Notes: generated by a model from the letters alone, not told the origin. Positions 13,685 through 17,424 are shown, numbered from the stretch's first letter. The stretch is 64,000 bases of DNA from Bradymonadales bacterium (GCA_007693605.1 REDG01000024.1:13013-77012); one strand, 5' to 3'. A program made the numbers and translations.

Positions 13685-15493
13685 CTAGGATCGGTTGAGT
13701 CGAATGGATCTTAAAAGATCGAGCACAATCAACTGAGACACATTGGTTTGCGCTAAAGCAAGCTTTTGAGCCTCTTGAAGATCTTCAAGTCTTCCGAGCT
13801 TTGCAAGCTCTTGGTTGACATTAAGACTCACCAGTCTCTTTTGGGCTTCTGCATTAACTTCCTTCAATGAATTTCTGGAACTTTTCTGTCGGTTTAACTC
13901 TTTCTCTTCCAGCTGAATCTGCCGTTCAAGCTCAGTGAGCTTCGCTAAGGCCCCGTCCAACACTGCTGCAGTCCGATCTGCCTTGTCTTTTGTTTGCACT
14001 TGCAGCGCTCCAGAGGAAAAGCGAGTCTCTGTCTTTGCGAGATAAACATTGGAGCCAGTCGTTGAACTGGTCGAGACGATGTCGGCAAAGCCATTTTGGT
14101 TCAGATCGCCAATGGCAAGACCATCAAAACGAAGATTGGTTGCGATGGTCTGAGTGATACTAAAAGAGCCCGTCCCAGAATTTGTCAGGAGAATCAAGTC
14201 TCTGGCATTATTCAGCATCAACAGATCAAGGCTTCCATTTCCATTGTAGTCAAAGGCCCTTAGAACTCTCGGGGCGCTGGCAAAGCTTCCAATGTTCACT
14301 CCACTGAATGTTCCATTTCCATTTCCTTCATAGAGCTGAATGCTTGTTCCAAAGCCTGCGTTGTAAATTATATAGTCAATGTTTCCATTTCCGGTGAAGT
14401 CCCCCAAAATGATATCCCTCGTTTGAGGAAATCCGAAAGCGTCAACTAGGAAGGAGCTTGTGAAGTTTCCAGACCCGTCATTGAGAAACGCCTGCCGATG
14501 ATTGTTCGTTGAATTGTACATGAATATGTCGAGGACTCCGTCATTGTCGAGATCAACTAGTTCAACACGGGCTGGATCAATTCCCAAAGCAATCGTGCCT
14601 GTAGATGAAAAACTTCCATCGCCTTCGTTTTCAAAGATTTCAATCTCGTTGGTTTCAGACTTAATCAATATGTCTCGGCGTCCATTTCCTGTGAGGTCCC
14701 CAACCTTAACGAGGATAGCATCCTTCGCAAGGGCTGGTCCGGTGGAGGTCGCAAAAAGATGGAAGCTCCCCTCGCCATCAAATTCAAAAATCGAGACGAT
14801 CCCGTCCGATCCCATGGTGACAATATCGTTCACACCATTCCCTGATACATCTCCAATATCAAAACTTGTGACATTCGCTCCTATCGAGACTCCTCCGGAG
14901 AACCCACCTGCTCCGTTTCCGAAACTGACACGAACAGTATCGGAGTTATTGTCTCGAACCACTCGATCCAGCAACCCATTCCCAGTAACATCGGCAAGCT
15001 CTGTGGGTCCACTTCCCGCAATGGTTTGAGAAAATTGATAAGTTCCCGTTGGCCTTTTGACTGAAAACAGTTCAGAGGCGAAGTTCGACTGAATCTTTAG
15101 GCCCTCAAACTTGTCGCTGGAACTTACTTTTTGCAGGAGGCTGAGTTTTCCTTGTAGTTCAAGTTGCAGGACCGCTCTTTCTGCAGAGGAAGTCTCAGAG
15201 TCTGCCGCCTCTAAGGCAATTTCGCGCATGGCCATCACCAGTTCTTTCTGGCTGCTAAGCGAAGTTTTGGCGGTTTCTACTCGGCTTAAATTTCGATTGA
15301 GGCCCAAAATCGATTGCGCGAGACTTTTGGCCTGGCCAGTGAGTCGATTCGCAAAGGAGAACTGAACAGAGTCTTTAGTTGAACTCAAGCGTCTTTCACC
15401 TTCCTCGACTCTCTGAAGGCTTTGCTGAATCGACTTGGATGTGTTGAGTAGTCGATTGGCAATCAGTTGACTTGTAAGAAAGTTAGTTTTCAT
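13685..15493 (-). CDS. flagellin-superfamily protein with a central 7-repeat FG-GAP beta-propeller insert (602 aa)
   Basis: The N-terminal 140 aa match the flagellin_N pattern (RLSS.K...ANRLTGQAKSL...NLSRVETAKTSL....MREIAL...LQ.E......FEGLKI). The C-terminus matches flagellin_C (..AQKLALAQTNVSQLIVLDLLRS). Seven D-x-[ST/N]-G-N-G-x-x-D loops lie between them (DVTGNGLLD, DVSGNGVND, DLTGNGRRD, DLDNDGVLD, DFTGNGNID, DYNGNGSLD, DLNQNGFAD), each followed by a G.G.F strand motif. Confidence 0.7.
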   Translation of the reverse strand: MKTNFLTSQLIANRLLNTSKSIQQSLQRVEEGERRLSSTKDSVQFSFANRLTGQAKSLAQSILGLNRNLSRVETAKTSLSSQKELVMAMREIALEAADSETSSAERAVLQLELQGKLSLLQKVSSSDKFEGLKIQSNFASELFSVKRPTGTYQFSQTIAGSGPTELADVTGNGLLDRVVRDNNSDTVRVSFGNGAGGFSGGVSIGANVTSFDIGDVSGNGVNDIVTMGSDGIVSIFEFDGEGSFHLFATSTGPALAKDAILVKVGDLTGNGRRDILIKSETNEIEIFENEGDGSFSSTGTIALGIDPARVELVDLDNDGVLDIFMYNSTNNHRQAFLNDGSGNFTSSFLVDAFGFPQTRDIILGDFTGNGNIDYIIYNAGFGTSIQLYEGNGNGTFSGVNIGSFASAPRVLRAFDYNGNGSLDLLMLNNARDLILLTNSGTGSFSITQTIATNLRFDGLAIGDLNQNGFADIVSTSSTTGSNVYLAKTETRFSSGALQVQTKDKADRTAAVLDGALAKLTELERQIQLEEKELNRQKSSRNSLKEVNAEAQKRLVSLNVNQELAKLGRLEDLQEAQKLALAQTNVSQLIVLDLLRSIRLNRS

Positions 15494-15555
15494 CTTTTGT
15501 TCTCCTGCGTTCTTTTAATTTTTCCTACTCCGTATCAATGCAAGCATAGGCCTTC

Positions 15556-17424
15556 TTAAGAGAGCTTAAACAACTCCAAAACCAGCTGAGCGTTTAGATT
15601 GATTTGACTGAGTGTGGCGACTTGTGCTTCTTGCAAAATCTGAAGTCGAACAAGTTCTGCCGTCTCAAAGGCGATATCCGCCTCTAGAAGACTCTGTCTT
15701 GCTTCTTCGACAACAGAGGCCACTCCGTCGGCGTGATTGCTCCATCGCTCAAGGCGGCCCACTTGAAAGCTGTTCTTGGTGATCTTCTCAGTGAGATTGG
15801 CAATCGCATTGTCAGCGATCTCGACAACTCTCTGAGCGGCCTCTACCGAGCTCAACTGAAGTCGATCTAGGGCCGCGATGGTTTCCGTTTCAAGCCGAAA
15901 GCTCACAAACTCCCCCATGTCATTGAAGGCCACGATTTCACTGAAGCCATCTCCCTTAAGATCTCCCACAAGAAGTCCGTGCAGAAAATCCCCCTCAAGG
16001 CTGGACTTCAAGCTGAAGCTTCCCGACTTATTCTCGTAGAGGGCAAGACTCCCGTCACTCATGCGAAAGATCAAATCGTTCATGCCATTTCGATTGAAGT
16101 CGATGAAGTTCACCGACTCAAAATCGGCAGCCCCGACAACCTCCTGAGTGGAACCAAATCCCCCAGTTCCATCATTCTGGAAAATTTCGAAGGAGTCGCC
16201 CCCTAGAATGACAATGTCGAGATGCCCGTTCCCCTTGATATCGGCCAACAGAAAGTCGGAAGCATCCCCATTGGTTAAAGTCGCGGTCGAAGTAAACCCG
16301 CCCGAGCCGTCGCCAGAAAAGGTGGTGACATTGGTGTCGGCTTGCAAGATGGCCAGATCCACAAGGCCATTGCCGTTGAGATCAGCCGCCTTAATCTTGG
16401 TGAGACCTCCGCCCATTCCGGTCGAAATGGTCGTGGCCGCCTGAAATGTCCCATCGCCATTGCCCAACCGAAGCTGAAGATCTCCTCCACTGGCAAGACT
16501 GACCAGGTCTTTCTGGCCATTGCCATTCACATCCACCAGAACAAAGCTGTCGGATTCCAGGCCACTGGGCCCTGCAAAGCTAGAAGTCAGTGTGAAGGAT
16601 CCGGTTCCGTCATTCTCAAGAATCGCGAAGTAATCTGTTCCCGCTGTTTGTGAATAGACGACCAGATCAAGAGCGCCGTTTCCGGTGAGATCGGCTGCTT
16701 CGACATGATACCCATCTGCACCTCCACCCAAGTTGATCGATTCGGGAGCCGCGAATCCTCCAATACCATTGCCCTTTGATATGCGAACTTCATTCTGACT
16801 GATGGTAATCAGATCTAGGTTACCGTCGCCCGTCACATCCAATAGAAGCTCGTTAGGTGCACCATCCACTAAGGTGCTGGAACTCGTCGCGATTTGTTCG
16901 AGCTTCCCTGTGCCCACTTCAAGAACAAAGTTATCCTGCGCCCGAGACTTTTGTAGCTGAAGTTCGCCAAGATTCCCCTTGTGATCGAGGGTGAAATCGA
17001 GGGATTTCAGACTTCCGTCGAGCAGTTTCTTTCCGTCAAAGCTTGTGGACTGAACAATCTGATTAAAGGATTCCATTAAGCTATTGAGACTGAGTTGAAG
17101 CCCTTCTCGTTGGCTGCTTGTCAGCTCTGAGTTTAAAGCATCGACGGCTAAATCTCGAATCGACTGAACCAGCTCGAGCTGATTCGCGAGAGCGGCGTCT
17201 GCGGTTTGAAAGAACCCAAGGCCTGCATTGAGATTGAGACTGGCTTGCCTCATGCCCCTCGCCTTGGCATCCAATTGAACGGCCTGAGAAAAGCTGGCGA
17301 TGTCGTCGCCTGGCCTCGTCAGACGGCTCCCCGTTGAGAGCCGAGTGAGACTCTTATTGATGGCCTTACTCGTTTCGAGCAATCGATTCGAAAGACTGAT
17401 ACTAAGTGAATTACCGATTTTCAT
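15556..17424 (-). CDS. flagellin/FlgL-superfamily protein with a central 7-repeat FG-GAP beta-propeller insert (622 aa)
   Basis: The N-terminus RLSTGSRLTRPGDDIASFSQAVQL....NAGLGFFQTADAAL....SIRDLAVDALN...FDGKKLL matches the FlgL/flagellin N domain. The C-terminus ADIAFETAELVRLQILQEAQVATLSQINLNAQLVLELFKLS matches flagellin_C. Seven FG-GAP loops lie between (DVTGDGNLD, DLTGNGALD, DVNGNGQKD, DLNGNGLVD, DIKGNGHLD, DFNRNGMND, DLKGDGFSE). AAGGAG Shine-Dalgarno sequence. Confidence 0.7.
   Translation of the reverse strand: MKIGNSLSISLSNRLLETSKAINKSLTRLSTGSRLTRPGDDIASFSQAVQLDAKARGMRQASLNLNAGLGFFQTADAALANQLELVQSIRDLAVDALNSELTSSQREGLQLSLNSLMESFNQIVQSTSFDGKKLLDGSLKSLDFTLDHKGNLGELQLQKSRAQDNFVLEVGTGKLEQIATSSSTLVDGAPNELLLDVTGDGNLDLITISQNEVRISKGNGIGGFAAPESINLGGGADGYHVEAADLTGNGALDLVVYSQTAGTDYFAILENDGTGSFTLTSSFAGPSGLESDSFVLVDVNGNGQKDLVSLASGGDLQLRLGNGDGTFQAATTISTGMGGGLTKIKAADLNGNGLVDLAILQADTNVTTFSGDGSGGFTSTATLTNGDASDFLLADIKGNGHLDIVILGGDSFEIFQNDGTGGFGSTQEVVGAADFESVNFIDFNRNGMNDLIFRMSDGSLALYENKSGSFSLKSSLEGDFLHGLLVGDLKGDGFSEIVAFNDMGEFVSFRLETETIAALDRLQLSSVEAAQRVVEIADNAIANLTEKITKNSFQVGRLERWSNHADGVASVVEEARQSLLEADIAFETAELVRLQILQEAQVATLSQINLNAQLVLELFKLS

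Follow-up and report, generated by a model that had tools for sequence, protein, structure and literature searches.

Two adjacent genes on the minus strand of a 64,000-nt stretch of DNA from a metagenome-assembled genome (MAG) labelled Bradymonadales bacterium (GCA_007693605.1, REDG01000024.1:13013-77012; the whole stretch is called the window below) encode proteins with flagellin-type ends in which the variable domain is replaced by one complete FG-GAP beta-propeller of seven repeats. The reading that we favour, with moderate confidence, is that both proteins, here called B and A, are flagellins exported by the flagellar type III apparatus whose outer D2/D3 domains have given way to a seven-bladed FG-GAP (integrin-alpha/VCBS) propeller. 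An initial annotation of the window had proposed a tandem pair of flagellin-superfamily proteins with such propellers; the two minus-strand open reading frames (ORFs) lie exactly where it had placed them, and both the superfamily assignment (Pfam and NCBIfam profiles, sequence matches in the Protein Data Bank (PDB), Foldseek) and the seven-repeat propeller (loop motifs, FG-GAP_3 scores, AlphaFold2) are borne out. The pair and its parts, in window coordinates, are as follows.

15556..17424, minus strand: gene B, 622 aa, intact ORF; putative flagellin with a propeller outer domain
16930..17424, minus strand: B residues 1-165, N-terminal D0/D1 helices and D1 beta-hairpin (AlphaFold2, phmmer)
15874..16926, minus strand: B residues 167-517, seven-bladed FG-GAP propeller
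15559..15846, minus strand: B residues 527-622, C-terminal D1/D0 helix (Pfam, PDB alignment, AlphaFold2)
15494..15555, minus strand: spacer between B and A, 62 nt, with the ribosome-binding site of A (sequence, terminator scan)
13685..15493, minus strand: gene A, 602 aa, intact ORF; divergent paralogue on the same plan as B
14018..15064, minus strand: A residues 144-492, seven-bladed FG-GAP propeller (loop motifs, AlphaFold2, Foldseek)

Gene B lies upstream and gene A downstream. Both start with ATG behind a Shine-Dalgarno sequence (AAGGAG for B, AGGAG for A), and since a terminator scan found no terminator-like site in the spacer between them, they are likely to be co-transcribed. B is an exact match to GenBank TVQ80679.1 (EA369_01630) and A is TVQ80678.1 (EA369_01625), both annotated as 'hypothetical protein' on a contig of 146 kb, and the two proteins share 31% identity from end to end.

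Profile searches, the check that the initial annotation had suggested, find flagellin domains above the Pfam cut-offs at both ends of B and at the N end of A only. Flagellin_N (PF00669, cut-off 26.6 bits) scores 96.3 bits in B and 36.1 bits in A, and the best NCBIfam models for the two proteins are all flagellins (97.8 bits for B, 51.6 bits for A). When PDB sequences were searched with phmmer (matches listed: the best 60 of 89 for B, all 58 for A), residues 3-161 and 518-620 of B aligned to filament flagellins (E 7e-24), the D0 and D1 segments doing so free of gaps at both ends, and the N end of A matched flagellins as well (E 9e-12). The C end of A aligns to that of B and is modelled as a 100-aa helix, its match to the C ends of PDB flagellins being insignificant. 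A query reduced to the termini of B (residues 1-165 plus 520-622) retrieved 33 proteins at 30-36% identity, all of them with Flagellin_N and Flagellin_C, and those with a name are all called flagellin. The hallmark motifs LERLSSGxRINRAxDDAAG and ELVRxQILQQAxxAxLAQANxxPxLVLxLL are kept in the family alignment, in which R28, G32, R34, D41, Q607 and L618 are invariant; B departs from the canonical ends in having DDIASFS for DDAAG and DALNSE for QAANG, and the window's pair, with the first of these differences, sits on a divergent branch of the family. Read by eye, the N termini of both proteins resemble flagellin D0, and no Sec-type signal peptide is evident in them. Taken together, B is the more canonical flagellin and A has degenerate ends, the reverse of the initial annotation, which had assigned FliC-like N and C ends to A, a protein with a weak N-end match and none to Flagellin_C.

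The middle of each protein holds exactly seven copies of the loop motif D-x-x-x-[DN]-G-x-x-[DE], spaced 46-53 aa apart (starting at residues 196, 245, 298, 348, 395, 442 and 488 in B and at 168, 215, 266, 314, 365, 415 and 463 in A), as opposed to a mean of 0.05-0.09 matches and a maximum of two in composition-preserving shuffles. FG-GAP_3 (Pfam cut-off 26.9 bits) reaches 137 bits over six matched stretches in B and 116.7 bits in A. A G-x-G-x-F strand motif is paired with each loop; one such motif precedes the first loop, a hint that an N-terminal strand closes the last blade. The third loop position is N or D in three of seven loops in either protein, S or T in most of the remaining loops, and K in two of those in B; Ca2+ probably stabilises the propeller through loops of the form D-x-[DNTS]-x-[DN]-G-x-x-D. 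The lectin models NF052348 and NF052349 match A only, at 18.8 bits (cut-off 200) and 13.7 bits (cut-off 400), respectively.

Confident AlphaFold2 models, built on a 17-sequence alignment of the family, joined these parts in one fold (predicted local distance difference test scores of 82.2 for B and 81.8 for A). The model of B has helices at residues 6-30 (D0), 38-96 and 103-126 (D1), a beta-hairpin at 141-156 such as flagellins have in D1, a long strand (167-181) that runs outward to the propeller, 28 strands forming seven four-stranded blades that end by residue 517, a return strand (506-517) and a single long C-terminal helix (527-621). The model of A follows the same plan. Both models, the second check that the initial annotation had named, thus show helices of the D0/D1 type with the outer domain between the two halves, the hairpin being present in B only, and they place a closed seven-bladed propeller between the N- and C-terminal halves of a predicted D1 on a two-stranded stalk. 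In Foldseek searches of the PDB, full-length filament subunits ranked first or close to first with both models (Geovibrio 9au6, Azotobacter 9n59, enterohaemorrhagic Escherichia coli 7sn4 and Salmonella 1ucu), matched over their full length with a probability of 1.0. Alongside the flagellins, the model of B matched the seven-bladed lectins PVL (2bwr), AAL-2 (4tqj) and PAL (5mb4) at 21-23% identity; the propellers of ITFG2, TcB and CRTAC1 were found with both models and that of UmbA4 with A.

The 120 best matches include about 18 clusters of the same architecture (Flagellin_N, FG-GAP_3 and Flagellin_C in ~620 aa), whose members are named 'hypothetical' or 'VCBS repeat-containing protein' and once 'flagellin-like hook-associated protein FlgL'; none is annotated as flagellin. 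A scan of 185,579 species-representative genomes with a 4-sequence alignment gave full-length matches at only ten loci in ten GTDB species, and 70 other loci matched in the propeller only. All carriers are MAGs, labelled Bacteriovoracaceae, Bdellovibrionales, Deltaproteobacteria or simply 'bacterium'. One of them, 'bacterium Co_bin.265' (locus L009), has three flagellin-propeller genes within 7.5 kb (76-1845, 1838-3703 and 5675-7531), and their products have strongly canonical ends (Flagellin_N ~120 bits, Flagellin_C 73-80 bits). Between the second and third of these copies lies a 527-aa ORF without Pfam matches, and an ORF for a LAGLIDADG endonuclease follows downstream (12381-12809). In a CG11 'Deltaproteobacteria' MAG (L007), an in-frame stop splits the family gene into an N end with propeller (4913-6316) and a C-terminal part (6320-6859); the gene is a pseudogene or else was misassembled. 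The 90% clusters of B and A in the protein collection are represented by fragments of 54 and 50 aa.

A profile search of 1.84 billion proteins returned giant multi-propeller FG-GAP proteins as all of its 150 top matches. Among the giants is P0246 (3892 aa), in which ~59 FG-GAP_3 stretches, roughly eight propellers, stand between degenerate flagellin-like ends: its N end has a flagellin-like ND1 segment (Flagellin_N 22.5 bits, just under the cut-off) and its helical C end finishes ...VSNLLK. P0246 may represent the same flagellin-propeller fusion theme in an extremely derived form.

The closest relative of the pair, locus L001 from a Logan assembly, likewise carries two family genes in the order B-A. 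B and the first L001 gene are 49% identical overall (57-59% in the ends, 42% in the propeller), A and the second 39% (34-35% in the ends, 43% in the propeller). As pair and order are kept, the duplication predates the divergence of the two genomes, and neither copy has been lost since. That the ends of the B orthologues are conserved above the propeller is what would be expected if the ends were under assembly constraint, and it is mainly because the B lineage conserves its ends most and the A lineage its propeller most that we take B for the assembly-competent copy; A would then likely be a subunit that is minor or specialised, or a poorly polymerising partner. The copy numbers, a tandem pair in the window and in L001 and a triplet in L009, follow a flagellin-like pattern.

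The label of the MAG is doubtful and likely wrong. The nearest named relatives of the window's seryl-tRNA synthetase are Bdellovibrionota, Bacteriovoracaceae and 'Deltaproteobacteria' MAGs at 60-70% identity (most of the closest ones are nameless), no cultured Bradymonadales is among its top 120 matches, and the GC content of the window is 49%, as opposed to 61-64% in cultured Bradymonadales (PMC7188933). The lineage that carries the family is uncultured and probably predatory.

Upstream of the pair, a short sequence recurs that is shared with other members of the family.

17425..17771, minus strand: region upstream of gene B, in which TTGACGC stands three times in forward orientation (17457-17463, 17585-17591, 17636-17642)

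TGACGC, usually as TTGACGC and in coding orientation, is strongly enriched ahead of the family genes: 14 upstream regions totalling 4,200 nt hold 11 copies, against 0.7 expected, and seven of the 14 genes, from different genomes, have one copy at -153 to -199. The sequence is found upstream of family genes in L001, L002, L003, L005, L006 and L007. B and its L001 orthologue have three copies each at matching positions, and a module CCCAG-N3-TGACGC-N2-5-GCCGCA is common to both, twice. It fits no sigma-70, sigma-28 or sigma-54 consensus, and a scan for sigma-70 promoters gave matches at chance level only. TGACGC may be a promoter or regulator site, through which the family would be controlled by a common regulator or by an alternative sigma factor. 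A CsrA-type 5' leader, prompted by a hairpin with GGA in its loop and the Shine-Dalgarno sequence, was considered for the same region and rejected, as the leader folds no better than shuffles (z -1.6 for B, -1.2 for L001).

If B and A are exported flagellins, each would leave the cell unfolded through the flagellar type III apparatus, guided by a flagellin N terminus and a C terminus of the FliS-binding type. This exit is the most plausible one because no Sec signal is evident, the N terminus is of the D0 type and a propeller with calcium loops is of an extracellular type. Under the filament cap the D0/D1 helices would drive polymerisation, and the propeller, folding beyond the core on its two-stranded stalk, would become the outer layer of the filament or of a part of it. 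The published geometry of filaments suggests that a propeller with a diameter of 45-50 A would fit a lattice cell of ~52 A axially by 51 A laterally at a radius of ~90 A with eleven protofilaments, and the resulting filament would have roughly the thickness of the Salmonella filament. The propeller may bind glycans or proteins, to judge by its likeness to PVL, BP39L and UmbA4; alternatively, it may serve as a bulky layer that alters stiffness, hydrodynamics and drag, or contact with a sheath. B would be the subunit that polymerises and A an old co-transcribed paralogue whose propeller is more constrained than its ends. The range of the family also speaks for this reading: MotA/MotB lie 6 kb from one member, Bdellovibrio bacteriovorus has six flagellin genes (PMC2791853), and the Bacteriovoracaceae and Bdellovibrionales in culture, two of the groups after which carriers are labelled, are flagellated.

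Several observations weigh against this reading. The Flagellin_C (PF00700) match of B is marginal (25.1 bits over residues 535-619, just above the Pfam cut-off of 23), A has none, and both proteins fall far under the cut-offs of the NCBIfam flagellin models (at best 97.8 bits as against 332-983), which are whole-protein models of specific subfamilies. The model of A lacks the D1 beta-hairpin, at a 23-residue gap relative to B. In agreement with the initial annotation, Pfam identified no flagellar, chemotaxis or type III export genes in the window (42 ORFs of at least 150 aa plus nine larger small intergenic ORFs, the scan leaving aside five further ORFs of at least 150 aa); within 10 kb of 15 related loci, no flagellar genes were seen except at one. 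There, in GCA_017302715.1, MotA/MotB lie 6 kb from the family gene, the sole motility genes at related loci. The promoters that the initial annotation had suggested looking for were absent too, with no match to sigma-28 (at least 10 of 12 positions) or sigma-54 upstream of B or of the genes at L001-L005. P0246 shows that the fusion theme also occurs in unlikely filament formers. Finally, the flagella of cultured Bdellovibrio and Bacteriovorax are sheathed by membrane; a 330-aa propeller layer beneath a sheath would be unusual and unexposed. Because the relatives are labelled as members of groups with sheathed flagella in culture, surface display is not guaranteed even if a filament is formed.

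Some of these observations are also what would be seen if B and A were secreted, non-polymerising flagellin-like lectins or adhesins in the manner of Campylobacter FlaC, the main rival, which we regard as unlikely. The ends would then be a type III export signal and a chaperone site, and the propeller would be released or loosely bound, with targets such as prey glycans. Degenerate ends (DDIASFS and DALNSE in B, the missing Flagellin_C match and D1 hairpin in A) would be in keeping with such proteins, as would an A lineage conserved more in the propeller than in the ends, genes lying outside flagellar clusters at all loci examined, and propellers resembling the secreted lectins PVL, BP39L, PLL and UmbA4; a sheath, moreover, would hide a lectin borne on the filament. 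However, the alignment of the D0/D1 segments of B with filament flagellins is ungapped at either end, these ends are the best-conserved parts of the B orthologues, and other members, whose ends are fully canonical, go beyond the needs of an export signal. Proteins of the FlaC type, in addition, have no large middle domain.

It is very unlikely that the pair forms a non-flagellar surface fibre, its helices serving as a coiled-coil stalk or oligomerisation module and its export following another route, perhaps in a host without a flagellum. The lack of flagellar genes nearby would suit such a fibre, as would a MAG labelled as Bradymonadales, an order with non-flagellated members, and the giant P0246, which retains only degenerate flagellin-like ends. 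Yet the motifs conserved across the family are specific to flagellins and go beyond heptads, neither a signal peptide nor another recognisable export signal is evident, and the Bradymonadales label is itself in doubt on the grounds of synthetase relatives and GC content. Least credible of all is the proposal of the initial annotation that the two are hook-filament junction (FlgL/HAP3) paralogues, or another low-copy axial part with an appendage: the 'TRPGDD' stretch of B does resemble an FlgL motif, the Joint Genome Institute calls one family member 'flagellin-like hook-associated protein FlgL' (a generic COG name) and TIGR02550 FlgL matches weakly, but its 47.6 bits for B, whose N end had been described as FlgL/HAP3-like, and 20 bits for A are under half the flagellin-model scores and far under the cut-off of 127.2, no FlgL chain is among the PDB matches listed or the termini-only matches, no flgK-like neighbour is present in the window or in L001-L015, and tandem copies such as the three in L009 are typical of flagellins.

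The surroundings of the family genes vary. In the window, the pair is accompanied by housekeeping genes (for NAD kinase, PP2C, RapZ, MetK and AdoHcy hydrolase) and by genes for a lipoprotein-like hypothetical protein and a J-domain protein; neighbours differ at every locus examined, so that no conserved gene neighbourhood emerges, and no short canonical flagellin is encoded within 10 kb of any family member. A subtilase (Peptidase_S8) gene stands directly upstream of the family gene, in divergent orientation, in L006 (8297-9793) and L013 (8255-9769), and in the window a PA-domain subtilase is encoded at a distance of 9 kb from the pair (3376-4905); this proximity may be a coincidence in protease-rich predators. 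The window's only hint of motility-related signalling consists of two small stand-alone PilZ-domain proteins (receptors of cyclic di-GMP; 1341-1718 on the plus strand, 61622-62032 on the minus strand), which are unlinked to the flagellin pair. A stretch at 29213-34947 is low in GC (0.43-0.46 at 30-34 kb), ends at a tRNA-Phe gene (34875-34947), the only Rfam match in the window, and looks like a small integrated island; it encodes a HipA toxin (31367-32392), a HipA N-terminal domain in an ORF of its own (32344-32667) and two ATPases of the AAA_14/DUF4143 kind (29213-30367 and 33216-34655). Between 46000 and 54000, the AT skew rises to between +0.23 and +0.31 over minus-strand genes for NADH dehydrogenase membrane subunits (nuoA, H, J, K, L, M and N-like), which probably reflects T-rich codons for hydrophobic residues in the coding strand.

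Foreign outer domains are a familiar feature of flagellins; examples are flagellinolysin, with its HEXXH metalloprotease domain, and the giant flagellins. From AlphaFold models of annotated flagellins, 682 clusters of outer domains have been distinguished (Fields et al., 2024; PMC11532411), and one sentence of that study, noting cellular homologues, mentions 'WD40-repeats in cluster #55'; this is the nearest precedent to the proteins described here. B and A resemble those flagellins in that a foreign folded domain takes the place of D2/D3 between conserved D0/D1 ends, and differ in that their propeller is FG-GAP/VCBS with calcium-loop motifs and not WD40 by sequence, a comparison in which cluster #55 is set apart by its description only. 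Full-text searches of the literature for a flagellin with FG-GAP, VCBS or a beta-propeller found no description of this architecture. Seven-bladed FG-GAP propellers are shared with the integrin alpha head, ITFG2, CRTAC1, three lectins of fungi (PVL, PAL and AAL-2), three of bacteria (BP39L, CV39L and PLL) and Streptomyces UmbA4, all of which are stand-alone or in receptors or toxins and none in a flagellin. What is unusual here is the specific outer domain and its restriction to an uncultured, probably predatory lineage, and not a new principle.

In Bdellovibrio, flagellin genes are dispersed outside the flagellar clusters, and orphan flagellin genes are normal there. Bdellovibrio bacteriovorus has six flagellin genes, fliC1-fliC6, which contribute to one filament (PMC2791853). 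The family described here is similar in its several flagellin genes, and its relatives come from the same broad group. Bdellovibrio-type flagellins, in contrast, are short (~280 aa) and without outer domains, and the filament they form is sheathed. Campylobacter FlaC, a secreted flagellin homologue that leaves by flagellar export, is dispensable for the filament and binds other cells, has flagellin-like N and C ends as B and A do; it has no middle domain, whereas B and A carry a 330-aa propeller.

In flagella, it is the outer domains of flagellin that face the outside world, and few of these domains, to our knowledge, have a known activity (the protease of flagellinolysin, adhesion, charge). 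If B and A were assembled, thousands of potential binding modules would cover the filament. A more far-reaching picture, which we consider quite unlikely, is that of a filament, or filament segment, of Bdellovibrio-like predators in which each subunit exposes a Ca2+-dependent propeller of the integrin/lectin type for the multivalent capture of prey glycans or particles, B and A providing two specificities or a structural and an adaptor subunit. The finding is notable and testable as it stands, and would become astonishing only with filament display and binding shown. The family also offers a natural test of the size and rigidity of domains that can travel along the flagellar channel in unfolded form before folding at its tip, and is a possible scaffold for display engineering. 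Should the proteins instead be secreted without polymerising, flagellin ends would have been reused as the export tag of a lectin; either way, these 'hypothetical' and 'VCBS repeat-containing' proteins merit re-annotation as members of the flagellin family. And if the filament is real, a calcium-loop propeller repeated ~20,000 times along it would make an extreme multivalent binding surface, and motility in predatory bacteria would be linked directly to the recognition of their targets.

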